Source: a bacterium (GTDB lineage: Bacteria; UBA10199; JAIBAG01). Taken from it: DNA of 64,000 nt. Below, one piece after another: positions 20,095 to 38,137 of this stretch (positions are counted from its first letter, which is position 1; each line of letters starts with the position of its first letter). The DNA lies in assembly GCA_019695305.1 (NCBI GenBank), contig JAIBAG010000016.1, positions 1,161-65,160 on the forward strand. Direction: 5' to 3'. The notes under the pieces were generated by a model, which had not been told where the DNA came from, searched no databases, and worked only from the letters and a program-made list of their open reading frames with translations. Both the position numbers and the translations under genes were made by a program.

Positions 20095-20631
20095 ATGGCA
20101 AATACTCAACCGATTGAAACCAACTATGTAGATATGACGGGTGCTACAACTACGGCCCAGCAACGTGCGGTTTCGGGAACCAATTTTTACGATACCATGA
20201 ACCAGCTGATGTACTACGCCGGTCCTACAGCCGCTCAAACGGCTGCTTATACGGGTCATGATGTAGTGTCGGCTGCCATCACGGCTTCGGCCGGTGGCTA
20301 CGGCGGTGGTTATGCCGGTTACCCCGGGATGTCTACCGGCGGTATGGGTTATACGGGTTATCCTTCGGCTTCGGTAGGCTTTAACTCGGGCGGTGTGGGT
20401 GCCAGTGTTTCGTACGGTGGGTCATCTAGTGCTGTTTCACGCAGTACGGGCACTTCTGATACCATGAGCTTAGTGAGTGATCAATTATACCAAGGCCAAG
20501 TACAAAACATGGAGATGTTGGTACTTCAAAACCAGGTAGCCGATGTAAACCGTACCTGGCAAATTGCCTCTACCGTAAGCGCCAATAGCGAACAAACCAA
20601 AATGGCGATGGTAAGAAATATGAGAGGTTAA
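20095..20631 (+). CDS. Needle-filament (SctF)-like protein with long Gly/Tyr/Ser-rich N-terminal extension
   Basis: 178 aa. The C-terminal ~45 aa (LVLQNQVADVNRTWQIASTVSANSEQTKMAMVRNMRG) follows the SctF pattern (..LQ..(I/V)N+W..I.ST+....+..I+QNFR). AAGGAG RBS. Strong terminator after it. It sits at the fliE/sctF position before a TPR chaperone and sctJ. Confidence 0.5.
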   Translation: MANTQPIETNYVDMTGATTTAQQRAVSGTNFYDTMNQLMYYAGPTAAQTAAYTGHDVVSAAITASAGGYGGGYAGYPGMSTGGMGYTGYPSASVGFNSGGVGASVSYGGSSSAVSRSTGTSDTMSLVSDQLYQGQVQNMEMLVLQNQVADVNRTWQIASTVSANSEQTKMAMVRNMRG

Positions 20632-20660
20632 GATTAGCCTCTAAAAGCAGAAGTCACAAG

Positions 20661-20696
20661 ATCGCGGTCCCGCCCCAGGCGGGACCGCGATTTTTG
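20661..20696 (+). terminator. Rho-independent terminator
   Basis: ATCGCGGTCCCGCC-CCA-GGCGGGACCGCGAT forms a 14-bp stem, followed by TTTTTG. Confidence 0.85.
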
Positions 20697-20757
20697 CTTT
20701 GGGGCTTATTAAACTTGTGTCATACTCCTAAAAGTATCTGATTTAAGAGGGAGAATT

Positions 20758-21192
20758 ATGATTGATGTTCCGCGTGATGATTTGGTGTTGATGATGGAAG
20801 CCGGTTATATTTATCTGGCCATGGGCAAGCTTTCTGAAGCGCGCCAGGTATTTGAAGGCATTTCAGTATTAGCGCCTCAAAACGAAATTCCACTTGTGGC
20901 TATTTCCAACGTTTATTTTGCTCAAAAAAAATATTTGCAGGCTATCCGTACCTTAAAAGAAGCTGTGGAACTTAATCCCAAAAGTGCCTTTGCCAAATCG
21001 CATTTGGGTGAAGCCTATTTGTTTTACGGTAAAAAAGATGAAGCTATTGAAACATTAAATGAGGCTTCCAAGCTAGACCCCAGTGGCAAGCCGGGTGATT
21101 TTGCCCGCTCGCTTTTAGAACTGATCAAAACGGGTTATGACCCTGTGGCGCTTACCAAGCAAGCCAAAGAAATGAAAAAAGGTGCCAAATGA
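20758..21192 (+). CDS. TPR-type T3SS chaperone
   Basis: 144 aa, all TPR. Lies between the needle-like gene and sctJ, the position of yscG-type needle chaperones. Overlaps the sctJ start by 4 nt. Confidence 0.6.
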   Translation: MIDVPRDDLVLMMEAGYIYLAMGKLSEARQVFEGISVLAPQNEIPLVAISNVYFAQKKYLQAIRTLKEAVELNPKSAFAKSHLGEAYLFYGKKDEAIETLNEASKLDPSGKPGDFARSLLELIKTGYDPVALTKQAKEMKKGAK

Positions 21193-22079
21193 CAACACGT
21201 CTTCTCTCTTGCTTAGCTGTTCTTCTTTTTATAGCTGCTTGTAACGAGCAGGTTACCTTAGTGCAGGATCTCGATCAAAAAAATACCAATGCTATTTTGT
21301 TTGTGCTGGCTAAAAATGGCATTAGCGCCCAAAAACAAGTGGTAGAAAAACAGCAGGAAAAAAGTTGGGTGGTAACGGTTGCCTCTGGCGATGAAGTGCG
21401 TGCACGTGAAATTTTGATGATGAACCAGCTTCCCAAGGAGCGCCAGCTGGGGCTTTCCGGGGTTTGTAAGGATGCGGGTTTAATTCCTACTCCTAAAACC
21501 GAAAAGTGTCGCGAGTTGCTGGCATTAAAAGGTGAAATTATTAACTCACTTGAATCTATTCAGGGAGTGGTGAGTGCCGATGTAGTATTAAACGTTCCCG
21601 AAAAAGAAGATTTCCCTGACGAAAATGCGCCACCTAAAAGGCCTACAGCTTCAGTGGTGATAGAGGTATCGGCGGAGTTTGGCAAAAATATTACCGAATC
21701 GAAGGTGCAGCAATTTGTGGCCAATGCGGTAACTGGCATGGATGTAAGAGATGTGGCTGTTATCATCAGTATGCCCGGGCAAAAGAAAGATACACCCACT
21801 GACACAACGGCTCAAATTGAAACTGGTGATAAAGTATCTCCCGAAAATGAAGATGTAGTTCAAAGCGCCGATATGACTTCGGTGGGGGGCTTATCCATGG
21901 ATGAAGCTTCGGCCAAAAAATTTAAAATTATTGCTGTTTTCTTTTTGTTTGTGTTTGTCCTGCTTTCCGCAGGCCTCATTGCTGTTCTTTTCCAAATGGC
22001 TCGTTTAAGACAAAAAAATGAAAAGCCTATGAATACCTTGCCCGAGCCGGTGGCTAACAGGGATGTGGTAAATACATAA
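21189..22079 (+). CDS. sctJ: T3SS inner-membrane ring lipoprotein SctJ (YscJ/PrgK/HrcJ family)
   Basis: 296 aa. Lipobox LLFIAAC. YscJ/FliF-family N-terminal pattern (L..DLDQK.TNAILFVLAKNGISAQK, EVRAREILMMNQLPKE). C-terminal TM FFLFVFVLLSAGLIAVLF. Confidence 0.8.
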   Translation: MTTRLLSCLAVLLFIAACNEQVTLVQDLDQKNTNAILFVLAKNGISAQKQVVEKQQEKSWVVTVASGDEVRAREILMMNQLPKERQLGLSGVCKDAGLIPTPKTEKCRELLALKGEIINSLESIQGVVSADVVLNVPEKEDFPDENAPPKRPTASVVIEVSAEFGKNITESKVQQFVANAVTGMDVRDVAVIISMPGQKKDTPTDTTAQIETGDKVSPENEDVVQSADMTSVGGLSMDEASAKKFKIIAVFFLFVFVLLSAGLIAVLFQMARLRQKNEKPMNTLPEPVANRDVVNT

Positions 22080-22158: not shown

Positions 22159-22178
22159 TACTAGTGAGAGGTTTTTTT

Positions 22179-22999: not shown

Positions 23000-23830
23000 A
23001 TGGTCATGCAAAAGCAAAAGAAGGTGGAAAAAGTGGCGAAAGAGGCAAAACAGCCTGTAGCACCAGCTCCTCAAAAAGCACCTGCTGTTAAAGGGCCGGC
23101 TGAGGACTTAATTGAAAAGTACATTCCTTTTGCGTCTTCTATTGCTAATAAAATTGCGCGCTCGCTTTCATCGGATGCTGATTACGATGATATTTTGTGT
23201 AATGCCCGTTTGGGCTTACTGGAAGCTGCCCGCCGTTTTGATGACCGTTTCAATGTAGATTTTAAAACATTTGCCTACTACCGTATTAAAGGCGCTATTT
23301 ATGACGGTTTGCGTAAAACGGGCTGGATTCCTCGTTCCATCTATACCAAATTTAAAATGGAACAAGCCGCCAATGAATATTTTAAAGGTGTTACCGAACG
23401 CATTATGGATTCGGCCGATTCCATTAAAAGTGATTTGGACATGTTAAGTGATAAAGTAAGCCAGATGGCTTCTGTGTATGTGATGTCGCTTGATAACATG
23501 GAAGAATATGAAGTGGAAGATAAGTCGGCTAAGCGCGATATTGAGCATAAGGCCGAGTTCCAGAAAATTAAGGAAAAAATGCGGGATGCTATTGAAGGCT
23601 TGCCCGAGAAAGAACGTAAGCTTGTAAAAATGTATTATTTCCAAAACAAGACTTTGCAGGAAATTGGAGAACGTTTAAACTTATCTAAGTCGTGGACCTC
23701 GCGTTTGCACGCCCGCTCGCTGGATTTGCTGATGAAAAAGCTGTCTGGCATTGGTGGCGATATGACGCTGGGTGAAGATTTTACGTTTGATGAAGCCGAT
23801 GTTTCGGCTGATTTAGGAGTAAGAGCGTAA
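23000..23830 (+). CDS. fliA: RNA polymerase sigma factor, FliA/WhiG (sigma-28) family
   Basis: 276 aa. Region 2 (DYDDILCNARLGLLEAARRFD...FKTFAYYRIKGAIYDGLRK). Region 4 (LPEKERKLVKMYYFQNKTLQEIGERLNLSKSWTSRLHARSL). Confidence 0.8.
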   Translation: MVMQKQKKVEKVAKEAKQPVAPAPQKAPAVKGPAEDLIEKYIPFASSIANKIARSLSSDADYDDILCNARLGLLEAARRFDDRFNVDFKTFAYYRIKGAIYDGLRKTGWIPRSIYTKFKMEQAANEYFKGVTERIMDSADSIKSDLDMLSDKVSQMASVYVMSLDNMEEYEVEDKSAKRDIEHKAEFQKIKEKMRDAIEGLPEKERKLVKMYYFQNKTLQEIGERLNLSKSWTSRLHARSLDLLMKKLSGIGGDMTLGEDFTFDEADVSADLGVRA

Positions 23831-23836: not shown

Positions 23837-24307
23837 ATGGATCCTATTGTTGCCAAACTGAATGATGCCTTAAATAAAAAGGTTCAAGAGTCGATTAAGC
23901 CTCAGGGCGAAGGTGTATCGTTTCAAAACACCCTAGACGACAAAATCACCTCCCGTTTTATCGATCGTTTAAAAGACGATGCCAAAATTGATGTTGGTCA
24001 AAACATGTCTATTGTGTCGGCTGATGATATTAAAATTGAAACAACCAACCCAGAGCTGGATACCAATAAAATCTTTTCGGCATCCGATCAGATGGAAAAT
24101 ATGTTCAAAGAAATGAACAACGGCTTGTTGGGTATGGATTCGGCCCTTGAAACTATTGCTGCTCCCAATACTAAACTTTCTTATCAAGACTGCTTAAAGC
24201 TTCAAATGTTTACTGCCCATACGGGTTTAATGGCTGAAGCTTTTTCTAAATTTACAGACGGTTTAACTCGCGGTATAACAACCATTCTACAAACTCAGGC
24301 TGGTTAA
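23837..24307 (+). CDS. Hypothetical hydrophilic protein; possible inner-rod SctI-like, or alternatively an anti-sigma factor
   Basis: 156 aa, 6 nt after the sigma gene. The C-terminal helix LKLQMFTAHTGLMAEAFSKFTDGLTRGITTILQTQ loosely resembles SctI/PrgJ C-termini. No firm assignment. Confidence 0.3.
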   Translation: MDPIVAKLNDALNKKVQESIKPQGEGVSFQNTLDDKITSRFIDRLKDDAKIDVGQNMSIVSADDIKIETTNPELDTNKIFSASDQMENMFKEMNNGLLGMDSALETIAAPNTKLSYQDCLKLQMFTAHTGLMAEAFSKFTDGLTRGITTILQTQAG

Positions 24308-25336: not shown

Positions 25337-26026
25337 ATGACCGGAAAAATAGTAAAACGCCAAGATGTGAACGAAAAACTCGATATTACCGATCAGGTGC
25401 ATATGGATACGGCCGCAGCTTCTGTATCGGCGGGGCGCAATGTAATTCGCAAGGATGATTTGGAGTCGGTAGGGAAAGCTAATGCTATTATTGATAAAGC
25501 CGTTGCAGAGGCCGCTATTATTAAAAGGCAAGCTAACGATTTATTGGCCAAAGTAGAAGAAGAAATAAAAATTAAAAAAGAACAAGGCTATGAAGAAGGT
25601 AAAAAGGCGGGAGCACGTGAAGTAAGTGAGTTTTTAATAAAAGCCAAACGACATAAAGAAAAAATGTTCCAAGATTTGGAGCCAGATCTCATTAAATTAG
25701 TTTATGACATTTCCGAAAAAATTATTGGTAAAGATTTAAGCGAACGTGAAGGTGCCATCGTCGATTTAATCCGCCAAGCGCTGTCAACTTCACTGGGCCA
25801 AAAAATTGTAGTGGTGGTGCATCCCGCCGATTTACAAGTTGTAAAAGCTAATCAACCGCAGTTGTTGCAGGCTCTTGATGCGACCTGTACCTTACAAATT
25901 CGTGCCGACGAACGCGTAAAACCAAAAGGTTGTTTTATTGAAACTGAAATTGGAACCATTGACGCCGAGCTTGAAACGCAACTCACCATTATTCGTCAAG
26001 CCTTAGGATTGGAACCCAATGCATGA
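25337..26026 (+). CDS. sctL: T3SS stator protein SctL (FliH/YscL family)
   Basis: 229 aa. Coiled-coil N-terminus (EEEIKIKKEQGYEEGKKAG) and a FliH-type C-domain. 4-nt overlap with sctN. Confidence 0.8.
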   Translation: MTGKIVKRQDVNEKLDITDQVHMDTAAASVSAGRNVIRKDDLESVGKANAIIDKAVAEAAIIKRQANDLLAKVEEEIKIKKEQGYEEGKKAGAREVSEFLIKAKRHKEKMFQDLEPDLIKLVYDISEKIIGKDLSEREGAIVDLIRQALSTSLGQKIVVVVHPADLQVVKANQPQLLQALDATCTLQIRADERVKPKGCFIETEIGTIDAELETQLTIIRQALGLEPNA

Positions 26027-27357
26027 CAAGCCCCGACGACATCATCATTGATCTTAAAAAATACCGTACCCGTATTGCCAATTTAAATCCGTATCGTGTG
26101 AAGGGTAAAGTGGTAGAGCTTACCGGACTTGTGGTCAAAGCCATTGTGCCCAATGTGCGCGTAGGAGAGTTATGTCTTATTGAATCACGTCACAAAAATA
26201 AACCTATTAAAGCCGAAGTGGTAGGATTTAAAGACAACACCGTGCTGCTGATGCCGCTGGGTGAGTTGGAAGGTATTGGCCCTGGCAACGATGTTATTCC
26301 TACCGGTAATTGTCTGATGGTACCTGTGGGTAACGAACTGTTAGGACGTATTTTAGACGGTTTGGGCGAACCCATCGATACGGCCCAAAAAGGACCTCTT
26401 AAATGCCGCGAGTATTATCCTGTACACAATAGCCCCCCTGATCCTCTCACACGTAAACGTGTGCTCAAGCCTATTTCGGTAGGAGTAAAAGCTATCGATT
26501 CTATGCTGACAGCTGGTGAAGGTCAGAGAATGGGTTTATTTGCGGCGGCCGGTGTGGGTAAATCAGTTCTAATGGGTATGATTGCGCGCAACACAGAAGC
26601 CGACATTAACGTGATTTGTTTGGTGGGGGAGCGGGGACGAGAATTGCGAGATTTTTTGGAACAAGATTTAGGTGAGGAAGGCTTAAAGCGCTCTATTGTG
26701 GTGTGCTCTACATCCGATCAGCCTTCCCTGGTGCGTTCTAAAGCGGCCTATGTGGCAACGGCTATTGCCGAGTATTATCGCGACCAAGGTAAAAAAGTTT
26801 TATTAATGATGGATTCTGTAACGCGCTTTGCCCGCGCGCTTCGTGAAATTGGTTTGGCTGTGGGGGAACCCCCTGCGCGTCAGGGTTTTACGCCTTCCGT
26901 TTTTTCCACTCTTCCAAAATTGCTCGAACGAGCCGGTAATTCCGATAAAGGATCTATCACCGCTTTTTATACTGTGCTGGTAGAAGGCGACGATATGAAC
27001 GAACCTGTAGCCGATGAAGTGCGTTCTATTTTGGATGGGCACATTATTCTCTCACGTGATTTAGCCAATCGCGGTCAATATCCCGCTATTAACGTTTCGG
27101 AATCCATCAGTCGTGTGATGAGTAATATTGTGGATCAAGAACATTTGGATGCGTCGCGGAAATTAAAAGAAGTGGTAGCGAATTACGAAAAAGAACGTGA
27201 TCTCATTTTAATTGGCGCGTACGAGGCGGGTTCTAACCCGCAGGTGGATTATGCGATTGAGAAGATTGATGAGGTTAATAATTTTTTGAAGCAGGGGATG
27301 TATGATGAGATTGGTTTAGTGGAGGCGGTTGATCTTTTGAAATCTATTTTTGTTTGA
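26023..27357 (+). CDS. sctN: T3SS ATPase SctN (FliI/YscN family)
   Basis: 444 aa. Walker A GLFAAAGVGKSVL. Walker B VLLMMDSVTRFA. Typical EGDDMNEPVADEVRSILDGHI.LSR.LA.RG.YPAI. Confidence 0.95.
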   Translation: MTSPDDIIIDLKKYRTRIANLNPYRVKGKVVELTGLVVKAIVPNVRVGELCLIESRHKNKPIKAEVVGFKDNTVLLMPLGELEGIGPGNDVIPTGNCLMVPVGNELLGRILDGLGEPIDTAQKGPLKCREYYPVHNSPPDPLTRKRVLKPISVGVKAIDSMLTAGEGQRMGLFAAAGVGKSVLMGMIARNTEADINVICLVGERGRELRDFLEQDLGEEGLKRSIVVCSTSDQPSLVRSKAAYVATAIAEYYRDQGKKVLLMMDSVTRFARALREIGLAVGEPPARQGFTPSVFSTLPKLLERAGNSDKGSITAFYTVLVEGDDMNEPVADEVRSILDGHIILSRDLANRGQYPAINVSESISRVMSNIVDQEHLDASRKLKEVVANYEKERDLILIGAYEAGSNPQVDYAIEKIDEVNNFLKQGMYDEIGLVEAVDLLKSIFV

Positions 27358-27458: not shown

Positions 27459-27983
27459 ATGTTTTTTACGATGCCGAAGAAAGAAAAATACAGATTAGAG
27501 CCTCTTTTGAAAGTGAAGGAGAGAGCCAGACGAACCGCAGAGATTGCCTTGGCTAAGGCTATTAAACTTTTAAAGCAAGAACAGGAAAAGCTGGAATTAC
27601 TTAAAGGAAAAAAGACAGAGATTGAAGAAAAGAAAGAGAATACAAAAAGGGACTTACGCTCTAAAGTTTCGGAAGGCGGTTTAAAAATTAGACAAAGTGA
27701 GTTTCATTTTAATTTTATCCGTAAATTAGATGAAGATATTGAAAGCGTGAGCAGAGAAATTAAAGATCAGGAAGATGTGGTGGCAGAGGCGGATAAAAAA
27801 TTAAAAAGAGCGAAACGTGATTACATTGATGCGGCTACAGAGCTAGATGTTATGAAGAAACACAAAGAGTTATGGACCAAGAAATTAACCAAGAAATTAT
27901 CGGATAAAGAAAATAAAGAAATGGGTGAGCTTGGCAATGTTTTGTTTCAAATAACCAAAGGTCGCGAGGGTGCGGCTGGTTAA
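27459..27983 (+). CDS. sctO: T3SS stalk protein SctO (YscO/FliJ-like coiled coil)
   Basis: 174 aa. Highly charged coiled coil (YRLEPLLKVKERARR.AE.AL). Position directly after sctN. Alternative ATG at 27471. Confidence 0.65.
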   Translation: MFFTMPKKEKYRLEPLLKVKERARRTAEIALAKAIKLLKQEQEKLELLKGKKTEIEEKKENTKRDLRSKVSEGGLKIRQSEFHFNFIRKLDEDIESVSREIKDQEDVVAEADKKLKRAKRDYIDAATELDVMKKHKELWTKKLTKKLSDKENKEMGELGNVLFQITKGREGAAG

Positions 27984-27999: not shown

Positions 28000-28878
28000 A
28001 TGTCAATTGATTCAATAGATAATAACTCCGGCGATGATGACCGCCGGGCCGACCGCAAAAAAAGTGAAAATAAGTCGGCCGAAGAACGAAAATCGCTGGA
28101 GCGGGCTGGTCGTGATTTTAAAACGCGTCTTGAAAGCCAGTCGAAATCCCGTGAGATTTTTGAAAAGCAGCAAACTGAAAAATTTGTACAAAAAAATCAG
28201 GAAAATCTTTTAAATAAAATTTTAGAAACCCAACGTAAAAAAGAAGAAAACGCCAAGCAAGACCAGCATGAGCTTGATAAAAAGGAAGATAATAGAAAAG
28301 ACGCTAAAAAAGATGCTCGCCAAGCCTCGCAAAAGAAAAATGCTGACGGTGAAACGCATAAAAGAGTGGAGTCACATACGTCACACCATGGCCAAAGCGA
28401 TGACCAGGAGAGCTCTTCTTTTTCACAGGGCTCTGGTAGTGGCGGTAGTGGTGGCGGAGGGCAGCAGAAAGAATTTTCGGGAGATAAAGATAATAACAAA
28501 GGTGGCCAAGAACAGTTGATGTCGAATGATGAAAAGGGAACCTGGATTGGTCAAAAACAAAAGGTTCAAAAGGCTGAATTTAAATTTGGGGCGGGAAAGA
28601 ATACACGTAATTTTTTAAAGGATGAGGAGATTAGTGAAATTGTACACCAAGTAGTAATTGCCACCTATAGTGATGGTAACAAGGAAGTGGAAATTGTTTT
28701 AAAGGATGATGTGTTTTATGGACTAAAAATGAAATTTGCTCAAGGCGATGACGGTGTAGATGTAACCTTTATTTGCCCTAATTTAACGGTAAAAGGACTT
28801 TTTATTTTAAATAAGGCCAAAATATTTTTTAAACTCCAAGAAAAGGGAATTAAGCTCGGTAAATTTGAAATCATGTAA
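28000..28878 (+). CDS. sctP: T3SS needle-length/substrate-switch protein SctP (FliK/YscP-like)
   Basis: 292 aa. Charged, low-complexity N-terminal two thirds (Gly/Ser tract GSGSGGSGGGGQQ). Globular C-terminal ~90 aa (EIVHQVVIATYSDGNKEVEIVLKDDVFYGLKMKF..DGVDVTF) resembling the FliK/T3S4 C-domain. Position after sctO. Confidence 0.5.
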   Translation: MSIDSIDNNSGDDDRRADRKKSENKSAEERKSLERAGRDFKTRLESQSKSREIFEKQQTEKFVQKNQENLLNKILETQRKKEENAKQDQHELDKKEDNRKDAKKDARQASQKKNADGETHKRVESHTSHHGQSDDQESSSFSQGSGSGGSGGGGQQKEFSGDKDNNKGGQEQLMSNDEKGTWIGQKQKVQKAEFKFGAGKNTRNFLKDEEISEIVHQVVIATYSDGNKEVEIVLKDDVFYGLKMKFAQGDDGVDVTFICPNLTVKGLFILNKAKIFFKLQEKGIKLGKFEIM

Positions 28879-28879
28879 C

Positions 28880-30031: not shown

Positions 30032-31251
30032 TGTATTCTTTCGTAAGTTTTAAGTTCTGGGAAAAAACGAGACCAGGCCCAAACAATGCCCATGGTGGCA
30101 AATCCTCCCAGAACCACCGTAGGAACAGTACCTATAAGACTAGCAACGGCTCCCGATTCAAACTCACCCAATTCGTTAGAGGCACCAATAAACACCAAAT
30201 TAACAGCGCTCACGCGTCCGCGCATTTCTTCTGGAGTTTCCATTTGCACCATAATTCCGCGGATAACTACACTAATCATATCGGCTGCTCCTAAAATAAA
30301 AAGAGCTGAAAGCGACAGGAAGAAATTTTTGGATAAACCAAACACAACTGTAAAGACCCCAAAAATAAATACAGCCTTTAGCATGGTAAGGCCGGTTTTA
30401 TTTTTGATGGGATAATGAGCTAAATAGATAGCCATGAGAGCCGCGCCCACAGACGGAGAAGCGCGTAAAATTCCTAAGCCTTTGGCTCCGACATGTAAAA
30501 TATCGTTCGCATATACGGGTAATAACGCTACGGCTCCTCCAAAAAGAACGGCAAAAAGATCTAAAGAGATAGTCCCCAAGATAATTTTTTTATGAAATAC
30601 AAATCTCACGCCGGCAAGTAATTCATGCCAGCTATGCACTTCTTTGCGTAGCGGGGTTGGGCGTTTGGCAATAGGGTTTATGAGTAAATACGAGAGAAAG
30701 CGCATAGCAGTCACAATAATGAGAACTTCACGTGGACTGGAGGAAAAAGCGTAAATAAAGCCTGCTAAAGCAGGGCCTGCAATAAACGCAAGCTGCATGT
30801 TAGAAGAATTCCAGGCAACAGCATTTCCAAAATGATTTTTGGGAATCATATCGGGTAAAAATGAAAAACTAGCAGGCCCATCAAAAGCATATGCCGCTCC
30901 CAATATAAAGAGAAGAGGGTATACTAGCATGATGGGGAGTTTGCCGGTAAAATATAAAGCGGTCATCAACACCATCACAAAAAACTGAGCCAGGCGAGAG
31001 AGTAAAATGAGCAATCTACGGTCATAAATGTCGGCCAAGTGGCCTGCAGGAACCGTAAAAATAAATTTAGGTAAAAAGAGAGAAAGTCCAAGCCAACCTA
31101 AGTGGAGAGGGTTTTTGGTGACTTGGTAAAGATATTGCGCCATGGCAACAGCCAGCATTTGGTGTGAAGCTAAAGCCAAAAAACGTGCTGCCGAGTAATA
31201 GCGAAAATCGGGATGGCTAAAGGCTATAAAGGGGGATTCATTTCTTTCCAT
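30028..31251 (-). CDS. MFS transporter
   Basis: 407 aa, about 12 TMs. MFS loop motif GHLADIYDRR. Confidence 0.8.
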   Translation of the reverse strand: MERNESPFIAFSHPDFRYYSAARFLALASHQMLAVAMAQYLYQVTKNPLHLGWLGLSLFLPKFIFTVPAGHLADIYDRRLLILLSRLAQFFVMVLMTALYFTGKLPIMLVYPLLFILGAAYAFDGPASFSFLPDMIPKNHFGNAVAWNSSNMQLAFIAGPALAGFIYAFSSSPREVLIIVTAMRFLSYLLINPIAKRPTPLRKEVHSWHELLAGVRFVFHKKIILGTISLDLFAVLFGGAVALLPVYANDILHVGAKGLGILRASPSVGAALMAIYLAHYPIKNKTGLTMLKAVFIFGVFTVVFGLSKNFFLSLSALFILGAADMISVVIRGIMVQMETPEEMRGRVSAVNLVFIGASNELGEFESGAVASLIGTVPTVVLGGFATMGIVWAWSRFFPELKTYERIQ

Positions 31252-31339: not shown

Positions 31340-32278
31340 ATGGCGCTCAAGGCCCAAGTTGAAACATTTCCATTTGATAAATTACCCCGATTCACGCGTG
31401 CAGAATGCGAAGTGGTTTCGTTTATGGCCAAATATTTTCCAGTGTCGTTTGCCGATTCTGCCCTCCTAGATCAGCTGGGGCGTTCTCTTAAAAAATATTT
31501 TGGTGATGCATTTTCAATTAATTTTGAAAATATGGAAGAAATTGCACTCGATAATTTAAACGCAAAAATTGCTGGCAAGTGTGTTGTGGCTGCCGTTTCC
31601 TTGACTCCCTATACCAAAAAGCTTATCATCACCTCCGATTTAGACTTAACAACAGCTATTATCGACAAAGCACTGGGTGGTGGCGGTGAAGTTCCTGAGG
31701 TTCCGGGCGAGTTGACTGCATTAGAAGAGGGCGTTCTCGAATTTGTGGCAGCCAAGGTGTTAAAAGCGCTCAATGGTGTTACGGCTAGTCCTTCACATCG
31801 TTTTATTTTAGAATCGCTTGAAACGCGGCGTTTTAAGTCGGAAGTACTTTATGTGTCTACCGAACGTTTTTATGTTCTGCGATTTTTGGCTGCTGTAAAC
31901 AACGTGTCGGGAATTATTGCTGTTCATATTCCGTTGTCGCTTTTGTTTGAAATGAAAGGACGTAGCGATATTTTTGCAGCTAACGAAAATATGCGCTATC
32001 AAACGCAACGTCTAAAAGATTTTGATAATTTAAGAACGGTGTTGTGGGGTGAGTTGGGGCATGTTTTGTTACACCCTCAAGATTTAAACATTTTAGACCG
32101 TGGTGATGTTGTTTTATTTGATGAAACTGATGCAAGTTTGATGGATGGAAAAGTAAAAGGAACTATTAAACTGCGTTTTGGTGATGGACGTGGAGCCGGT
32201 TTTGAGGCTTTTGTTGAAGCAGATCATACGTCCGATTATCAGGTAAAATTGGGTTCGATGTTATCTAAAGAGGAGTGA
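31340..32278 (+). CDS. sctQ: T3SS sorting-platform protein, SctQ N-terminal-type (FliM/HrcQa-like)
   Basis: 312 aa. LPRFTRAE......., GELTALEEGVLEFVAAKVL pattern typical of SctQ/FliM. Followed by a separate SpoA-domain gene with a GTGA overlap. Confidence 0.6.
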   Translation: MALKAQVETFPFDKLPRFTRAECEVVSFMAKYFPVSFADSALLDQLGRSLKKYFGDAFSINFENMEEIALDNLNAKIAGKCVVAAVSLTPYTKKLIITSDLDLTTAIIDKALGGGGEVPEVPGELTALEEGVLEFVAAKVLKALNGVTASPSHRFILESLETRRFKSEVLYVSTERFYVLRFLAAVNNVSGIIAVHIPLSLLFEMKGRSDIFAANENMRYQTQRLKDFDNLRTVLWGELGHVLLHPQDLNILDRGDVVLFDETDASLMDGKVKGTIKLRFGDGRGAGFEAFVEADHTSDYQVKLGSMLSKEE

Positions 32279-32742
32279 GCGTGGCAAATAAAGATCCTTT
32301 TGATGAAGAATTAATGGCAGAGCTGGGTTTAGAGCCTGGGAAAGCGGCACCTGCTAAAGCTGCGGCTCCCAAGCCACCGGTTACACAACAACGTGCTCCC
32401 ATAACTCCTCCTGCCAGTCAGCCTAAAACAGCTGATCCGGTAACGGGTAAAACACAAATTGTAGAACGTCCCAAGCCAAGTGCGCCTCCTGCATCTCAAG
32501 TAAGCCCTGCCGATAACGAACAAGTGGCTTTGGATATGCCCGTACAGGTAGTGGCAGTATTGGGTAAAAAAACAATTACCTTAAAAGAAATTTTATCTCT
32601 TAAACAGGGCGAGCTTTTTGAACTAAAAAAATTACCTCAAGAACAAATTGATCTTGTTGCTAATGGTAAATTAGTAGCTCGCGGTGATTTGGTGTTAATA
32701 GACGGTAAAATGGGATTGCAGATTAAACAAATTATTAAATAA
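32275..32742 (+). CDS. T3SS SpoA-domain protein (SctQ-C / FliN / HrcQb-like)
   Basis: 155 aa. Pro/Ala-rich N-terminus. C-terminal SpoA domain (VQVVAVLGKKTITLKEILSLKQGELFELKK......DLVANGKLVARGDLVLIDGKMGLQI). Confidence 0.8.
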   Translation: MSVANKDPFDEELMAELGLEPGKAAPAKAAAPKPPVTQQRAPITPPASQPKTADPVTGKTQIVERPKPSAPPASQVSPADNEQVALDMPVQVVAVLGKKTITLKEILSLKQGELFELKKLPQEQIDLVANGKLVARGDLVLIDGKMGLQIKQIIK

Positions 32743-32765: not shown

Positions 32766-33083
32766 ATGATATATTTTTTAGCACAAATTGATTCTGCTGC
32801 CGCTACAACCGAAATGTCGTTTGGGTGGCTACTTGTTAAAACACTCTTGGCTTTGGCTTTTATTTTGGCATTGGCCTTTGTGTTTATTCGTTTTTTGCTT
32901 CCCAAACTTAACTTTGCCCAAAACATTAAGCAAAATGTGCCGGTTAAAATTTTATCGCGCACGGGTTTAGAAGCCCGCAAGGCTTTGTATGTGATTGAAG
33001 TAGGAAAAAAGAAAGCGCTTATTGCTGCTACCGATCACAATGTTACTAAAATTTTTGATTTAAACGACGACGACCTCAAGTAA
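32766..33083 (+). CDS. FliO-like single-pass membrane protein
   Basis: 105 aa. TM (LLVKTLLALAFILALAFVFIRFLL) followed by VKILSRTGLEARKALYVIEVGKKKALIAATDHNVTKI. This parallels E. coli FliO ..LKISASASLGARERVVVVDVEDARLVLGVTAGQINLL. Directly upstream of sctR. Confidence 0.6.
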   Translation: MIYFLAQIDSAAATTEMSFGWLLVKTLLALAFILALAFVFIRFLLPKLNFAQNIKQNVPVKILSRTGLEARKALYVIEVGKKKALIAATDHNVTKIFDLNDDDLK

Positions 33084-33088: not shown

Positions 33089-33826
33089 ATGTTCATGATG
33101 AGTTTTGTTCCTTTTATGGCGCAGTTAGCACCGGCAGGTCAGCCCATTGCGCAGCCTGTAGTGATCCTCATCTTTTTAGTTATCTTGTCACTGGCACCTT
33201 TTTTGGTGATGATGATGACTTCCTTTGTTAAAATCACCGTTGTTTTTTCGCTCATCCGTACGGCTTTGGGTACGCAACAAATTCCTCCTAATCAAATTAT
33301 TACGGGACTAGCACTCATTCTTACTATTTATGTAATGATCCCGGTTGGTGCCGATATTTACGACAATGTAAAAAGTACCATTCATGATACGGGCAGTAAT
33401 CAACCCATTATGTCGATGGCTTCAATTGATGTTTTAAAGCAAGCATTTGATAAGGGTAAAGAACCCATGCGCGCTTTTTTAACCAAGCATGCTTCTACCA
33501 AAGACAGAAGCCTCTTTTTTAACATGGCTAAAAAATTGCGCGCTAACAGTACCAGCACATCCATTGCCGAAATTGGGGAAAACGATTTTATTGTACTGGT
33601 TCCGGCCTTTATGATTACTGAGCTTGCCGAGGCCTTTCAAATTGGTTTTATTTTGTTTTTACCCTTTTTAGTAATCGATATGGTGGTATCCAATATTCTC
33701 CTCGCTATGGGTATGTTCATGGTGTCGCCTGTGACCATTTCGCTTCCGTTTAAACTACTCTTGTTTGTACTGGTAGATGGATGGTATCTTATCACGCAGG
33801 GGCTTGTGATGGGGTATGTGAACTAA
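33089..33826 (+). CDS. sctR: T3SS export apparatus protein SctR (FliP family)
   Basis: 245 aa. MTSFVKITVVFSLIRTALGTQQIPPNQIITGLALILT. FLPFLVIDMVVSNILLAMGM. Confidence 0.93.
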   Translation: MFMMSFVPFMAQLAPAGQPIAQPVVILIFLVILSLAPFLVMMMTSFVKITVVFSLIRTALGTQQIPPNQIITGLALILTIYVMIPVGADIYDNVKSTIHDTGSNQPIMSMASIDVLKQAFDKGKEPMRAFLTKHASTKDRSLFFNMAKKLRANSTSTSIAEIGENDFIVLVPAFMITELAEAFQIGFILFLPFLVIDMVVSNILLAMGMFMVSPVTISLPFKLLLFVLVDGWYLITQGLVMGYVN

Positions 33827-33827
33827 T

Positions 33828-34094
33828 ATGGAATCGTATACAATTGCTATTAGTAAACAGTCGCTTTATTTGGTGCTCTTGCTTTCGGCGCCTCCTGTGT
33901 TGGCTGCCATGGTGGTGGGGCTACTTGTTAGTTTGGTGCAGGCTACTACGCAAATTCAGGAGCAAACTCTTACTTTTGTTCCTAAAATGGCAACAGTTAT
34001 TGTGGTATTGGCGCTTTTGGGGCCCTTGGGCATGGCCTACATGATTTCATTTACCAAAACTTTGCTAGAAACATTTCCAACGTATATTCATTAA
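33828..34094 (+). CDS. sctS: T3SS export apparatus protein SctS (FliQ family)
   Basis: 88 aa. Two TMs. LVSLVQATTQIQEQTLTFVPK motif. Confidence 0.9.
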   Translation: MESYTIAISKQSLYLVLLLSAPPVLAAMVVGLLVSLVQATTQIQEQTLTFVPKMATVIVVLALLGPLGMAYMISFTKTLLETFPTYIH

Positions 34095-34107: not shown

Positions 34108-34938
34108 TTGATCATGTCGGTACTAGAAAAAATTTTTGGAATTAATGTTGATTATTTTGCAGCCTTTATTACCTGGGCGTTGCTGCTTACCCGTATTTTG
34201 GTGGTATTGCTGCTTATTCCTTTTATGGGAGGAAAACTAGTGCCCGCCCGTTCGCGCCTGGCTACGGCTGCTTTAATGGCTACCTATTTATTTGTGGTTT
34301 TATACCCTTCACTAAAAACACAGTTCCCCGACGATAAAGCCATTTTATTTGCACTTTTTTTTAAAGAGATTTTTTTTGGGATGACTATTGGTTTTGTGAC
34401 CATGATGACTTTTTATGCCTTGGAAGGTGCAGGACGTATTGTGGATATGCAGCGTGGTACGGCCAATGCCATGCTTTTTATGCCGCAACTGGGCCAGGTA
34501 TCTATTTTTGGTTTGTTTAATTACTGGTTAGCGGTGGCTTTCTTTTTATCCATTGGTGGTCATCGGTATTTTTTTGAGGCATTTTTTTCGGCCTATAAAA
34601 TATTACCTCTTTTAACCTTGCCGCAAATAGCACCGGGATTTTCTCCATTTTTGGAATTTTTTATTAAACTTTCGGCCAACGTTTTGATTATTGCCATTCA
34701 ATTATCGGCACCCGTGCTTATTGCCATTTTACTGGTAGATGTGGTGTTGGGGATTGCCAATAAAATGGCCCCGCAAATTAACGTGTTTGAGTTAGGTTTT
34801 GCCGTAAAAGGATTTGTAGGGCCTCTTATGATATATGTATCACTTTTGGTTTTGGTATCTCAAATGGATGTGGTGATGAAAACCATGATCACCTCCATTG
34901 ATATGCTGGCCAAACTGTTAGCCCATAATAGCCCCTAA
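34108..34938 (+). CDS. sctT: T3SS export apparatus protein SctT (FliR family)
   Basis: 276 aa polytopic. GGRIVDMQRG and LGIANKMAPQINVF motifs. Start is TTG at 34108 or ATG at 34114. Confidence 0.9.
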   Translation: MIMSVLEKIFGINVDYFAAFITWALLLTRILVVLLLIPFMGGKLVPARSRLATAALMATYLFVVLYPSLKTQFPDDKAILFALFFKEIFFGMTIGFVTMMTFYALEGAGRIVDMQRGTANAMLFMPQLGQVSIFGLFNYWLAVAFFLSIGGHRYFFEAFFSAYKILPLLTLPQIAPGFSPFLEFFIKLSANVLIIAIQLSAPVLIAILLVDVVLGIANKMAPQINVFELGFAVKGFVGPLMIYVSLLVLVSQMDVVMKTMITSIDMLAKLLAHNSP

Positions 34939-35146: not shown

Positions 35147-35986
35147 ATGTCAGACGTCATTATTCCCGGTAACACCACAAACGAAGAACTCTACCAGATT
35201 TACAACGAAGTTTTTGGTGGCGATTTAAGTGCTATGGAAGCGGCTTTTACGGCCGGAGATGCTCCCGAAGGTTACGATTTAGTGGATTTGTTTAATGCCA
35301 TTGTTCACTTTAGCGGAAGTTTGCCTGATGCCGTGGTAGCCTACGATTCCACTTTTCCTGAAGATATTAGTGAGGAAGATGCCGAACAAATTGCGGTGGC
35401 TATGCAGTACTGGATGACACAAAACCCTAACATGGAAGCCATGGGCACAGAATTTTTAAACTGGTTGGGTACAGAGTTTAGTTTTGACCCTGCTAGTTTA
35501 GAATCTCAAGTTGAAGATTTTATTAATAGCTACAAAGATAGCGGTGGTACTTTAGGCCCTTATCCTTCTCCTGAAGAGGGAGAAACCGTATTTAGTTTGC
35601 TAGATGTAGATGACTTGACCGATCTCATTCATTACGCGTTAACCGCCTATTCGTCTCCCGCGGCCGTAATGAATCTTTTAATTTTAGGTTTTCAAACCCG
35701 CGTGCGTGACATGACCGATGCCGTGGTGGGTGCGTTTGATGATGTGTCCAGAGAATTGGAAGACATTACTGCAAATTTTCCTGATGATCCTCTTGCCGAT
35801 GGTTATCAATATGATGTGTTTCAAGCGCAAACCAAAGTGGAAAACTTGCGCAATGCCATGCAAACGCTTACCAACATTGTAAAAACCATTCAGGACATGA
35901 TGCAGAACATGATTCAAACCCAGGCCGCTACCAACGAAAGTTCGCAAAACACTTTGGAACGGCTCAATAGCTATATTGCGTCATAA
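35147..35986 (+). CDS. Acidic hypothetical protein, candidate T3SS substrate (tip, translocator or gatekeeper class unresolved)
   Basis: 279 aa, strongly acidic, no TM. C-terminal coiled coil (QTKVENLRNAMQTLTNIVKTIQDMMQNMIQTQ). AAGGAG RBS. Followed by a class II-like TPR chaperone. Confidence 0.6.
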   Translation: MSDVIIPGNTTNEELYQIYNEVFGGDLSAMEAAFTAGDAPEGYDLVDLFNAIVHFSGSLPDAVVAYDSTFPEDISEEDAEQIAVAMQYWMTQNPNMEAMGTEFLNWLGTEFSFDPASLESQVEDFINSYKDSGGTLGPYPSPEEGETVFSLLDVDDLTDLIHYALTAYSSPAAVMNLLILGFQTRVRDMTDAVVGAFDDVSRELEDITANFPDDPLADGYQYDVFQAQTKVENLRNAMQTLTNIVKTIQDMMQNMIQTQAATNESSQNTLERLNSYIAS

Positions 35987-36038: not shown

Positions 36039-36095
36039 GTTTATTGGCTGAGGTAACGATAAATGATATCCTTAAGTACTAATAATGAGGGAATC

Positions 36096-36641
36096 ATGCA
36101 GAAGCGTGTAGGGGTTAAATTACCGTCTTTTTTAGATAAAAAGCCCGATCTTAAAAAGAAGATTGCCGAAGTGGTTGGTCAAACTCCACTCGCCAAGCGT
36201 AAACAAGATATTGAAAAGCTTAAACAGTTTTTTACAGGCGAGTTAAGCTGGGTAGAGGTAAAGCAACTGCCCCGCCGTTATATTAATGAAATGGCTAAAA
36301 TTGCCACCATGGAATTTAAACTGGGTCATTTAAAGAGAGCCGAAGCTATTTTTAAGGGTTTGTGTGTGATTGATCATAAAACAGCCTATCATCACCGTGC
36401 GTTAGGTGCTGTTTATCAAAAACAGAAAAATTTTGAGAGTGCAGTAGAGAAATACAATATGGCGTTAGTAGCTAAAGAAAACGACATTTCCACACTGGTA
36501 AACCGTGGCGAATGTTATTTGCACTTAAACAATAAAGTACAAGCTTTGGCCGATTTAAATGCAGCCATCAATTTAGATAAAAATGGGAAAAATCCATGGG
36601 CTAACCGAGCCCGTGTTTTGGTGAAGGGTTTAAAACAATAA
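36096..36641 (+). CDS. Class II T3SS chaperone (LcrH/SycD/IpgC-like TPR)
   Basis: About 181 aa from the ATG at 36096 (GAGGGA SD). FKGLCVIDHKTAYHHRALGAVYQ parallels SycD FQALCVLDHYDSRFFLGLGACRQ. Three TPRs. Confidence 0.75.
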   Translation: MQKRVGVKLPSFLDKKPDLKKKIAEVVGQTPLAKRKQDIEKLKQFFTGELSWVEVKQLPRRYINEMAKIATMEFKLGHLKRAEAIFKGLCVIDHKTAYHHRALGAVYQKQKNFESAVEKYNMALVAKENDISTLVNRGECYLHLNNKVQALADLNAAINLDKNGKNPWANRARVLVKGLKQ

Positions 36642-36653
36642 AACAGGAATTTT

Positions 36654-37478
36654 ATGTCATCACCTATTACTTACAGCACATCCGATCTTGAGACAATCCA
36701 CCAGCTAGAAACTTATTTGGCGCAAAGCGGGGTAAGCGAAGCCGATATTGACGTTATTATGGCGGGTATCGACAATAATAGCGATGTTGATATCCCCGAT
36801 GAGTTGAAAAATGCCTACCTCAATTTGACCATGCTTAAATTGTGGCAGCTTATTTCGCCCGATACTTATCAGTCGGCTTATGGGCAAATTGGCCCTGATG
36901 TAAATCGTGGCGATGCCGATGATTTATTTGCCGCCATGGACGATTATATGAGTCCAGAGTTGGCCCAGCTTTTAGAAAAACTTATTAACGATTCTCCCGA
37001 ACTAATGGCTTTGGCAGCCGATACCGATGGTGATCCCGAGACTACAGCTCAATCTGTTTTTGATGCTATTGCCAAAGCGCGCGAGACTACTGAAGAAGGG
37101 GAAGATTTGGAAAATGTGTGGAGCGATCATGCAGGTCACGATGTTGTAGAAGATTTGGGGCTGCAGGGTACTTTTTATGAATCGGTGTTAGATCAAGCCG
37201 ATACCTTTCAAAATATTCAGGGCATTGCCATGCAAGAAATTGCCAAGTACCAAGATTTTTTAACCAACCTTTTTAGCGAAGGTGTTAAAAGTGGTGATGT
37301 GACGGTTGAAGAAGCCCAGGCCCAGGCCGGGCAGGTAAGTGCCATGATGGAAATGTGGACGGGTATTTACAACCAGGCTCAAGATCAGGTAAATAATTTG
37401 TATCAGTTTGTGGGAGCTGTTACCAAAGAACATGCCGACTTGTTAGATAATTTGGCTCGTAACTTGGCTATGCGTTAG
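36654..37478 (+). CDS. Acidic hypothetical protein, second candidate T3SS substrate
   Basis: 274 aa, strongly acidic, no TM. Same size and organisation as 35147-35986. The C-terminus ..LLDNLARNLAMR is reminiscent of needle-family ends. Confidence 0.6.
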   Translation: MSSPITYSTSDLETIHQLETYLAQSGVSEADIDVIMAGIDNNSDVDIPDELKNAYLNLTMLKLWQLISPDTYQSAYGQIGPDVNRGDADDLFAAMDDYMSPELAQLLEKLINDSPELMALAADTDGDPETTAQSVFDAIAKARETTEEGEDLENVWSDHAGHDVVEDLGLQGTFYESVLDQADTFQNIQGIAMQEIAKYQDFLTNLFSEGVKSGDVTVEEAQAQAGQVSAMMEMWTGIYNQAQDQVNNLYQFVGAVTKEHADLLDNLARNLAMR

Positions 37479-37480
37479 TA

Positions 37481-38137
37481 GTGTGGGGTAATTTGGGTAT
37501 GGAAAAGGAATTGGAAAATATTGCGTCCACCAAAAAGAAGGACAATAAAAAAGGCGAAAATCGTCTTATTTCGCCCGATCCCGTTCGTAAAAAGTTTATT
37601 ACCGAATTACTGCACGCTTTTGCTGCCCGTAAAATTAGTTTTGCCGAATTAACAAGGTTGCATCCCAAAAAAATAAAACAGATTGCCGAAATTGGTTTTG
37701 TTAAACTGCGCCATGGCCGTTACAAAGACGCCCGCCGAATTTTTGAAGCTCTAACTTTTTTAGACCACAAAAATTCGTTTCACCATTTGGCTTTGGCCGG
37801 TGCATATCAAAAACTGGAATTGTTTGTGGATGCCATTTATCAATACACCGAAGCGTTGCGGATAGAGCCCGATAATATCAACGCTATGGTTAATCGTGGT
37901 GAATTGTATTTGCGCCGCAAAAGTTATCGCAAGGCTGCCGAAGATTTTAGAAACGCTATTTTAAAAGATGAAACCGGCAAAGACCGTTTTGCCAACCGCG
38001 CTAGGTCGCTGGTGATTGCTATAAAACGTTCGCTTGCTCAAGATAAAGAAGAAGCGTTAAAACCCAAGAAAATCCCTACCTCACCGGCTAACAAAGCCAC
38101 TCTCTCGCCTTTTAAGTTTAATATGAAGAAGAAGTGA
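37481..38137 (+). CDS. Class II T3SS chaperone (LcrH/SycD-like TPR), second copy
   Basis: 218 aa from GTG at 37481, or 212 aa from ATG at 37499. IFEALTFLDHKNSFHHLALAGAYQ. TPRs. Basic C-terminal tail. Confidence 0.75.
   Translation: MWGNLGMEKELENIASTKKKDNKKGENRLISPDPVRKKFITELLHAFAARKISFAELTRLHPKKIKQIAEIGFVKLRHGRYKDARRIFEALTFLDHKNSFHHLALAGAYQKLELFVDAIYQYTEALRIEPDNINAMVNRGELYLRRKSYRKAAEDFRNAILKDETGKDRFANRARSLVIAIKRSLAQDKEEALKPKKIPTSPANKATLSPFKFNMKKK

Follow-up and report, generated by a model that had tools for sequence, protein, structure and literature searches.

A type III secretion cluster combining injectisome-type and flagellar-type genes in a bacterium of the UBA10199 group

A 64,000-nucleotide stretch of DNA from a bacterium of the UBA10199 group (GenBank assembly GCA_019695305.1, contig JAIBAG010000016.1, positions 1,161 to 65,160), referred to here as the window, contains a cluster of type III secretion genes. 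The listing of open reading frames (ORFs) and Pfam and NCBIfam scans of the 60 larger ORFs across the 64 kb show the T3SS (type III secretion system) cluster as a single run on the plus strand from 15850 to 38137, followed by two divergent regulator genes. The coherent T3SS region spans 15.8-41.7 kb of the window and has housekeeping genes on both flanks. An initial annotation had placed the locus at 20095-38137, which is essentially right, but the unit reaches 15850 upstream and takes in the activator gene at 38218-39735 downstream.

Gene content of the cluster

The genes of the cluster and its regulators are as follows, in window coordinates.

15850-18174, plus strand: protein of 774 amino acids with an FHA domain, a transmembrane helix, two to three PEGA domains and TPR repeats
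19635-19934, plus strand: small helical protein of 99 amino acids, directly upstream of the needle-like gene, at the site where the needle co-chaperone SctE/YscE would be expected
20095-20631, plus strand: needle-family (SctF-like) protein, 178 amino acids
20758-21192, plus strand: TPR protein, 144 amino acids, at the site where the needle chaperone YscG/CdsG would be expected
21189-22079, plus strand: SctJ inner-membrane ring lipoprotein, 296 amino acids
22149-22631, plus strand: membrane protein of 160 amino acids with no Pfam or NCBIfam match
23000-23830, plus strand: FliA/WhiG (sigma-28)-type sigma factor
23837-24307, plus strand: SctI-like inner-rod protein, 156 amino acids
24367-25299, plus strand: FliG homologue, 310 amino acids, occupying the SctK position of classical injectisomes
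25337-26026, plus strand: SctL/FliH stator
26023-27357, plus strand: SctN/FliI export ATPase
27459-27983, plus strand: SctO/FliJ stalk
28000-28878, plus strand: charged FliK/SctP-like protein of the length-control/substrate-switch family, 292 amino acids
31340-32278, plus strand: FliM-like protein, equivalent of the N-terminal part of SctQ
32275-32742, plus strand: FliN / SctQ C-terminal (SpoA) domain protein
32766-33083, plus strand: FliO
33089-33826, plus strand: SctR/FliP
33828-34094, plus strand: SctS/FliQ
34108-34938, plus strand: SctT/FliR
35147-35986, plus strand: acidic protein, 279 amino acids, putative secreted substrate 1
36063-36641, plus strand: LcrH/SycD-class TPR chaperone 1
36654-37478, plus strand: acidic protein, 274 amino acids, putative secreted substrate 2
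37481-38137, plus strand: LcrH/SycD-class TPR chaperone 2
38218-39735, minus strand: FHA-domain sigma-54 enhancer-binding protein
39641-41746, minus strand: Ser/Thr protein kinase with PEGA domains

The ring protein encoded at 21189 is a lipoprotein of the SctJ type, as the initial annotation had held. It carries an IAAC lipobox with Cys18 and a C-terminal transmembrane helix, matches the Pfam family YscJ_FliF with 75.6 bits, and is the sole protein with this domain in the window. The NCBIfam model of SctJ scores 133.7 bits against 25.5 bits for FliF, whose cut-off is 129.75, and the sole PDB matches are MxiJ, PrgK and EscJ. The FliF protein of the flagellar MS-ring has about 550 residues and a C-terminal FliG-binding tail. 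One alternative regards the locus as a reduced or decaying flagellar export apparatus, representing either the fli operons of a non-motile lineage or part of a flagellum with its other genes elsewhere, and the 21189 product as a truncated FliF. The FliF score contradicts the truncation, and the lipoprotein nature and injectisome-only PDB matches of the ring argue against a flagellar relic in general, whereas the presence of FliG, FliM-like, FliN, FliO and FliA-type sigma genes argues for it.

The 24367 product was likewise correctly named as a FliG homologue. It exceeds the Pfam gathering scores of both FliG_M and FliG_C, and its iterated family profile reaches Myxococcota proteins of 339-658 amino acids as well as true FliG (E. 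coli FliG at 3e-42); a search with the single protein found 3 relatives among 5.8 billion proteins. The AlphaFold model, computed from an alignment of 13 sequences drawn from database homologues, has a pLDDT (predicted local distance difference test) of 84.7. FliG makes up all 13 of its best Foldseek matches in the PDB, and each of the three domains (N, M and C) also matches on its own. Global template modelling scores (TM-scores) are low, at about 0.2-0.3, as would be expected of a protein with three flexibly joined domains; the middle domain superposes with a TM-score of 0.72 at 2.6 Å. Compared with FliG, about 40 residues are deleted between the middle and C-terminal domains, and the C-terminal extension differs. 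SctK was also considered as an identity for this protein and rejected, as hhalign returned a probability of 0.2% against the SctK alignment and the Foldseek matches include no SctK. The FliG homologue is presumed to serve as the adaptor that links the membrane ring to the FliM/FliN ring. The FliG-like proteins of cultured Myxococcaceae (L246-L271, ORFs at about 10001-12300) are far longer, at 430-770 amino acids, and end in a low-complexity C-terminal extension rich in Pro and Arg.

The scores of the remaining cytoplasmic and export-gate proteins are mixed, with SctL and SctR leaning towards the injectisome families. The stator matches both FliH and T3SS_SCTL in Pfam and scores 99.8 bits with the HrpE/YscL model of NCBIfam versus 77.6 bits with FliH. 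The ATPase exceeds the NCBIfam cut-offs of both FliI_clade2 (639.3 against 629.8) and SctN (620.1 against 604.75); it shares 56-60% identity with Firmicute FliI, 53-54% with YscN, HrcN and RhcN, and 44-45% with enterobacterial FliI, and its identity to the Ysc, Hrc, Rhc and Spa ATPases ranges over about 42-54%. The stalk is recognized by the YscO-like (2e-22) and FliJ families of Pfam and by FliJ in NCBIfam. The FliM-like protein scores 26.5 bits with Pfam FliM (gathering score 27), its family profile reaches E. coli FliM (5e-49) and YscQ (6e-6), and inspection of the sequence shows that the CheY-binding N-terminus LSQxEIDALL is missing; its homologue in Myxococcus is fused to the FliN domain. 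The separate FliN protein has the Pfam domain FliMN_C and NCBIfam scores of 73.8 bits for SctQ and 67.7 for FliN. The FliO-like protein noticed initially is FliO by both Pfam (32.6 bits, gathering score 22) and NCBIfam, with a profile match to E. coli FliO at 3e-10. In NCBIfam, SctR is above its own cut-off and below that of FliP, and SctS is above its own and marginally below that of FliQ; SctT was assigned by Pfam and NCBIfam. The FliQ, FliR and FliJ scores are slightly higher than those of SctS, SctT and SctO, which, along with the resemblance of the ATPase to Firmicute FliI and its passing of the FliI_clade2 cut-off, favours a flagellar relic.

Components of a complete flagellum or classical injectisome are missing from the window. 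The 60 scanned ORFs yielded no domain of FHIPEP, FlhB, secretin, rod, hook, flagellin or Mot type, no FlgB/C/E/K/L, FliC/D/E or MotA/B within the 64 kb, and no match to SctU and SctV queries in a tblastn search of the window. The initial annotation had reported the absence of secretin, SctU and SctV, which the domain scans and tblastn bear out, and of rod, hook, flagellin and Mot genes, which is correct for the last three but not for the rod, as an SctI-like inner-rod gene is located at 23837-24307.

The 20095 product has no domain match as a single sequence. It combines a Gly/Ser/Ala-rich middle with a conserved C-terminal helix, SNxxKxxxDxxxxxIRNxR, and the needle-family C-terminus claimed for it is supported by the family profile, whose top eight PDB matches are without exception needle proteins, aligned at their extreme C-termini (E-values of 0.002 for the SsaG fragment 7y6c_F, about 0.07-0.09 for PrgI and 0.45 for MxiH). 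The profile also matches an ORF of 94 amino acids in a Syntrophobacterales T3SS locus at 1e-5, and the family is present in UBA10199-type genomes, Myxococcaceae (cultured strains included) and one Acidobacteriota locus. The protein has 178 amino acids versus about 80 for needle subunits. The SctI-like assignment of 23837 also derives from a family profile, with MxiI as the best match (E=0.006 over the C-terminal 53 residues), YscI at 0.045 and a Syntrophobacterales T3SS ORF at 9e-21. Homologues of 23837 lie directly 5' of sctJ in Myxococcota and Acidobacteriota loci, the place of sctI in classical injectisomes.

YscE and YscG flank YscF, and the needle-like gene is likewise flanked by two small genes. 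The upstream gene, 19635, is kept at the same position in 10 UBA10199-type and 10 Myxococcota loci; its product has no Pfam or NCBIfam match, and a PDB profile search that considered YscE returned only a designed helical hairpin. The downstream TPR protein, 20758, is recognized by Pfam TPR and is syntenic in Myxococcota and UBA10199-type loci; its NCBIfam matches are all weak and below threshold (LcrH_SycD 38.7, CdsG 36.3 and SctY 28 bits), and direct BLASTP with YscG was not significant. Downstream of the SctO gene, 28000 has no Pfam match as a single sequence, and its family profile reaches E. coli FliK at 2e-16; fliK and sctP follow the FliJ/SctO gene in their own systems.

Of the three LcrH/SycD-class chaperones proposed initially, those at 36063 and 37481 are clear, and the one at 20758 less so, its matches being weak. 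The best NCBIfam match of 36063 is LcrH_SycD (75.7 bits, below the cut-off), with SicA also matching; 37481 is its paralogue (36% identity, E=5e-31) and is 30% identical to Yersinia LcrH over 71 amino acids (E=4e-11). Each chaperone gene follows a gene for a protein that is acidic, as had been noted: the 35147 product has 17% acidic and 3% basic residues and the 36654 product 19% and 4%. Both are devoid of transmembrane segments, with maximum 19-residue hydropathies of 1.41 and 0.81. Homologues of 35147 amount to a single weak match in the Acidobacteriota locus L064 and none in the closest loci spanning that region, and no homologue of 36654 was found even in those loci. Such fast divergence next to chaperone genes would be expected of secreted substrates, for which the two proteins are candidates.

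These genes bear on a second alternative, a classical injectisome directed at eukaryotic hosts, with its secretin, SctD, SctU, SctV and translocators encoded away from this cluster, as in Chlamydiae; Chlamydiales are known to have their T3SS genes in scattered loci (PMC3459982). The SctJ ring, the needle-like and SctI-like genes, the LcrH-class chaperones with their acidic neighbours and the preference of SctR over FliP agree with it. The lack of transmembrane segments in the chaperone-paired proteins, unlike the SctB/SctE translocators, does not, nor do the FliG homologue that replaces SctK, the FliO gene and the FliA-type sigma factor. The needle-family, SctI-like and LcrH-class genes are at the same time injectisome features that argue against a flagellar relic.

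Relatives and phylogenetic placement

Gene order had been taken initially as a flagellar hallmark, resembling the fli operons. It matches equally well the order sctF-G-I-J-K-L and N-O-P-Q-R-S-T of injectisomes, as annotated on Yersinia and Shigella plasmids (where it reads yscF-G-(H)-I-J-K-L for the first part), and because it is collinear with both, it does not discriminate between them.

The nearest relatives of the ATPase and SctJ are in metagenome-assembled genomes (MAGs) labelled 'bacterium' or 'Deltaproteobacteria', several with UBA10199 in the name, such as RIFCSPHIGHO2_02_FULL_40_28, STL-UBA1, STL-UBA2, UBA10199-1 and HKST-UBA10199; the phylum of these UBA10199-type relatives is taken from the MAG names. 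About 30 MAGs labelled UBA10199 or Deltaproteobacteria (loci L082, L001/L087, L088 and L089 among them) have the same genes in near-identical order. UBA10199-type relatives sharing this order are 76-82% identical to the window in the ATPase and 41-56% in SctJ. The next SctJ relatives found by an SctJ-specific pattern scan are in Myxococcota and Acidobacteriota, at 25-37% identity. The G+C content of the window, about 42%, had hinted at a Chlamydia-like or flagellar-relic origin, which was rejected on the relatives of SctJ and the ATPase.

Loci of the same kind were found in seven cultured Myxococcaceae: Myxococcus eversor, M. dinghuensis, M. qinghaiensis, Corallococcus terminator, Pyxidicoccus caerfyrddinensis, Citreicoccus inhibens and a Myxococcaceae strain. 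The Myxococcaceae order is 19635-like, 20095-like, TPR, sigma, 23837-like, SctJ, FliG-like, SctL, SctN, 28000-like, fused FliM-FliN, FliO, SctR/S/T and SctU, and the cultured loci also carry SctO and LcrH-like chaperones. Iterated family profiles show that nearly every gene of the cluster left without an assignment has a Myxococcota orthologue in the same place. Acidobacteriota T3SS loci (L003, L004, L064 and L095-L145, in MAGs of more than 30 species) fall in the same clade as the window and share the sigma factor, SctI-like protein, SctJ, SctL, SctN, FliK-like protein, FliO, SctR/S/T and LcrH-like chaperones. They differ from the window in having SctQ as a fused protein of about 514 amino acids, sctU after sctT, and no FliG-like gene, none having been detected in about 36 Acidobacteriota loci. 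In one of them, L004, sctV is present and adjoins an FHA protein gene. The 2012 survey of T3SS placed Acidobacteria among flagellated taxa only, and not among the phyla with non-flagellar T3SS (PMC3459982).

The ATPase tree (neighbour-joining, 63 sequences, simple distance correction) resolves three groups: flagellar FliI; classical SctN, comprising Ysc, Mxi-Spa, Hrc and Rhc with sequences from Syntrophobacterales, Kiritimatiellia and Puniceicoccales; and a clade of Myxococcota, UBA10199 and Acidobacteriota with 79% bootstrap. Within the third clade the window stands beside L082 (99%), the UBA10199-type loci form a subclade of their own, and Acidobacteriota are sister to the UBA10199-type systems (85%). 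In the neighbour-joining tree of concatenated SctN, SctR, SctS and SctT (1034 columns, 200 bootstrap replicates), the window groups with Myxococcota and Acidobacteriota at 93%, and the injectisome (Ysc, Mxi-Spa, Hrc) and flagellar clades, each with 100%, do not include it. As the trees are unrooted and based on simple distances, they establish clade membership and not the root or a basal position. Three loci among the apparent relatives of FliI, L074 (Syntrophobacterales), L030 (Kiritimatiellia) and L013 (Puniceicoccales), have ATPases that group with classical SctN (Ysc, Rhc); L074 also has needle-like (94 amino acids) and SctI-like ORFs, and the three are therefore taken as non-flagellar T3SS loci of little-studied lineages.

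The placement of the core proteins in their own clade at 93%, along with the absence of hook, flagellin, Mot and flagellar rod genes from the 64 kb, counts further against a flagellar relic, which is very unlikely. At least two phyla share the cluster in intact and syntenic form, and SctV is 76-93% identical among UBA10199-type genomes, which suggests selection rather than decay. The position of the core proteins outside the clade of Ysc, Mxi-Spa, Hrc and Rhc similarly counts against a classical injectisome.

The search for the missing gate components in relatives gave unequal results for sctV and sctU. In many UBA10199-type genomes sctV adjoins the cluster on its upstream side, followed by a reverse-strand double-FHA gene and TPR gene, then by the FHA-PEGA gene and the rest of the cluster. 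In some other UBA10199-type relatives it is found at a separate locus, an arrangement that a classical injectisome with scattered loci would share. Among Myxococcota and Acidobacteriota, the sctU/flhB gene is located directly 3' of sctT; neither the window nor about 30 UBA10199-type loci (about 20 kb each, about 10 kb around sctV or the main cluster) yielded it. Similarity to the secretins YscC and MxiD was not found within 10 kb of any UBA10199-type locus probed, a further point against a classical injectisome. In MAG STL-UBA2 the sctV gene is split into two overlapping ORFs (757-1128 and 962-2878 of L087) by a frameshift or an assembly error, which is consistent with other UBA10199-type sctV genes matching the query only from residue 74.

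The lineage to which the cluster belongs has been described in part. The 'Myxo' group of Abby & Rocha 2012 was positioned as basal to all non-flagellar T3SSs and interpreted as an intermediate between flagellum and injectisome (PMC3459982). The 'needleless' T3SS* of Myxococcus xanthus, encoded by mxan_2434-2464, is needed for prey lysis and works with the Kil Tad apparatus in the contact-dependent lysis of prey bacteria (PMC10433427, PMC12075869). FliO was reported in Myxococcota T3SS operons in 2025 (PMC12248157). Descriptions of the lineage in the part of the literature covered here list neither a FliG nor a needle homologue. The closest characterized relatives, those of Myxococcus, are described as secretin-less and acting on bacterial prey (PMC10433427), unlike a classical injectisome for eukaryotic hosts, which on all this evidence is very unlikely.

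We conclude, with a probability of about 80%, that the locus is a UBA10199-group representative of the early-branching 'Myxo'/T3SS* lineage and codes for a non-flagellar type III export machine. The initial annotation had offered a reading as an intermediate or early-branching non-flagellar T3SS or a repurposed flagellar export core, which the third clade of both trees (79% and 93%) and the intermediate NCBIfam scores support. Its suggestion of novelty has to be given up: SctN/R/S/T are placed within the described 'Myxo' family, and the FliG-like, FliO, sigma, needle-like and SctI-like genes of the window all have counterparts in the loci of cultured Myxococcus, Corallococcus and Pyxidicoccus. 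The window locus itself is an ordinary, intact member of that family. With the Myxo/T3SS* systems it shares the SctN and SctN+R+S+T clade, the gene set in near-identical order, SctJ with an SctI-like protein, and the lack of a secretin in the locus. It differs in that its host belongs to another phylum-level lineage, with a G+C content of about 42% versus 66-73% in Myxococcaceae loci; FliM-like and FliN proteins are separate in the window and fused in Myxococcus; sctT is not followed by sctU, and the window has no sctV; the 22149 gene and the FHA-PEGA gene at the head are additional; and the order of the sigma, SctI and SctJ genes is slightly shifted. FliG-like and needle-like genes are detectable in both the window and the Myxococcus loci, yet are not listed in the published descriptions. 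A role in prey lysis is known from the genetics of M. xanthus only, and the window has no Tad genes.

The subclade of the UBA10199-type loci, together with the 22149 gene (a family restricted to these loci in 10 of 10 matches), the conserved FHA-PEGA first gene, the split FliM/FliN and the lack of sctU after sctT, could also be taken to indicate a separate third T3SS type, specific to UBA10199 and outside the Myxo lineage. Every other component, however, has a Myxococcota orthologue in the same order, and the bootstrap values of 79-93% unite the window with Myxococcota in a joint clade, and we regard such a separate type as very unlikely.

The locus can also be compared with the two better-known systems. 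The window shares with the flagellum the homologues of FliG, FliM, FliN, FliO, FliH, FliI, FliJ, FliK and FliP/Q/R as well as a FliA-type sigma factor, all arranged collinearly; it differs in having the SctJ lipoprotein instead of FliF, a FliM-like protein without the CheY-binding N-terminus, a FliG-like protein with the 40-residue deletion, the needle-family, SctI-like and LcrH-class genes, and core proteins outside the flagellar clade. Shared with classical injectisomes are SctJ, SctL, SctN, SctO, SpoA domains of the SctQ type, SctR/S/T, the needle-family C-terminal helix, the SctI-like rod protein and class II TPR chaperones beside candidate substrates, whereas the window locus has no secretin, recognizable SctD, SctK, SctW gatekeeper or hydrophobic translocators, has FliO, a FliA-type sigma factor and a FliG homologue in the place of SctK, and is outside the injectisome clade.

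Several points weigh against the placement in the Myxo/T3SS* lineage or against a working machine of this type. The link to mxan_2434-2464 of M. xanthus is indirect, the compared loci being those of other Myxococcaceae and two Myxo loci having been described. The trees contain no Chlamydiales, Esc/Ssa references or outgroup, so that the three clades are visible and the root is not. SctV is outside the window, and the failure to find SctU in the window and the UBA10199-type loci leaves a complete export gate unproven. The needle-family and SctI-like assignments come from weak E-values (0.002-0.09) combined with position, and the YscE-like role of 19635 and YscG-like role of 20758 from position only. 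No sigma-28 consensus (TAAA-N13-17-CCGATA) is present in the cluster, and its one match in the 64 kb is located outside it, at chance level.

Regulatory genes, proposed working and evolutionary meaning

The regulatory genes accompany the cluster in relatives. The 23000 product, initially called a FliA-type sigma factor, has Pfam Sigma70_r2 and r4 domains and FliA_WhiG as its best NCBIfam match (139.8 bits, below the cut-off), which agrees with that call; homologues occupy the equivalent site in Myxococcota and Acidobacteriota loci. The 15850 product (Pfam FHA, Yop-YscD_cpl, PEGA and TPR) has homologues of 31-43% identity at the head of the cluster in UBA10199-type loci L082, L087-L091 and L151-L160. 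As the sole FHA-transmembrane protein of the window it was considered for SctD, a doubtful role, since a PDB search shows its FHA domain to be generic and GarA-like and its periplasmic part consists of PEGA and TPR; it may be a regulatory or ring-associated component. The FHA-domain sigma-54 activator at 38218, assigned by Pfam, has a 68%-identical homologue at the same place in L001 and is likely a regulator of the cluster. The kinase at 39641 (Pfam Pkinase and PEGA) may signal to the FHA proteins, and kinase genes are located near many Myxococcota and Acidobacteriota loci. In the UBA10199-type loci L082 (2704-4985) and L087 (3565-5925), the reverse-strand genes between sctV and the FHA-PEGA gene are conserved, one encoding a double-FHA protein and the other a TPR protein of about 420 amino acids. 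Together with the kinase and the FHA-sigma-54 activator, they suggest phosphothreonine signalling around the system.

What the data show are gene content, homologies, synteny and clade membership; from the analogy with flagella, injectisomes and the T3SS* of M. xanthus, we infer the following assembly, substrates, export, regulation and biological role. SctR/S/T would form the inner-membrane gate inside the SctJ lipoprotein ring, to be completed by SctU and by SctV, the latter presumably encoded elsewhere in the genome. The FliG-fold protein in the place of SctK would couple the SctJ ring to the FliM-like/FliN assembly, the equivalent of SctQ, on which the SctL-SctN-SctO ATPase complex would dock. 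The FliK/SctP-like protein might control substrate switching. Early substrates would be the SctI-like rod protein and the SctF-like needle-family protein, the latter possibly kept soluble by the flanking small helical protein (19635) and TPR protein (20758); the later ones would be the two fast-evolving acidic proteins of about 275 amino acids, each with its LcrH-class chaperone. Expression might be driven by the FliA-type sigma factor of the cluster and is probably tuned by the FHA proteins, the Ser/Thr kinase and the sigma-54 activator. As no secretin or membrane-inserting translocon is encoded in the window, the cargo probably passes into the periplasm or to a different conduit of the envelope, in line with the proposal that the M. 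xanthus T3SS* acts with Kil Tad.

The transition from flagellum to injectisome is a textbook case of exaptation, and to our knowledge the Myxococcales system is its only described intermediate. The present analysis extends the lineage much beyond its description, to about 30 UBA10199-type MAGs and many Acidobacteriota. In the lineage a FliG homologue takes the place of the injectisome SctK, FliO and a FliA-type sigma factor are retained, and SctF-like and SctI-like genes with putative chaperones are detectable. This would refine the order of component replacements, with the exchange of FliF for SctJ and the appearance of needle and rod proteins as early steps, and the exchange of FliG for SctK, the loss of FliO and the gain of a secretin as later ones. 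The conservation of FliG-fold and SctF-like proteins in the lineage, cultured Myxococcus included, seems to be the under-described point. It supplies candidates that could be tested in the tractable M. xanthus, both for what its 'needleless' T3SS* exports and for how its sorting platform docks.

A tentative extension of this reasoning, which we consider possible though somewhat doubtful, is that the lineage of UBA10199, Myxococcota and Acidobacteriota retains more of the injectisome's ancestral state than descriptions so far suggest. That state would be a secretin-less machine with SctJ, an SctI-like rod and an SctF-like filament with chaperones, combined with a FliG-fold adaptor, FliM and FliN either separate or fused, FliO and a sigma-28-type regulator. 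If so, SctK would have replaced FliG, or diverged from it beyond recognition, only later; the 'needleless' T3SS* would polymerize a short rod or needle-like structure; and the UBA10199-type variant may operate without a conventional SctU.

Insertions and neighbouring genes

The cluster is interrupted at two places by genes that are absent from the same sites in the UBA10199-type loci L082 and L001.

18221-19627: pyruvate kinase gene, between the FHA-PEGA gene and 19635, absent at that position in relatives
28865-31251: inserted PAP2 phosphatase gene and two reverse-strand genes, encoding a RING-like zinc finger protein and an MFS transporter

The PAP2 gene overlaps the 3' end of the 28000 gene. 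No tRNA was found in the window, and an Rfam scan of the window returned nothing. An ORF of 2183 amino acids at 128-6679 on the plus strand has no Pfam match at E<=0.01; the plus strand around it shows a strong skew of G over C, from +0.07 to +0.20. At 7567-8541, also on the plus strand and in a local dip of G+C to about 39%, an ORF joins an IS200-like Y1 transposase domain to a C-terminal helix-turn-helix resembling region 4 of sigma-70.

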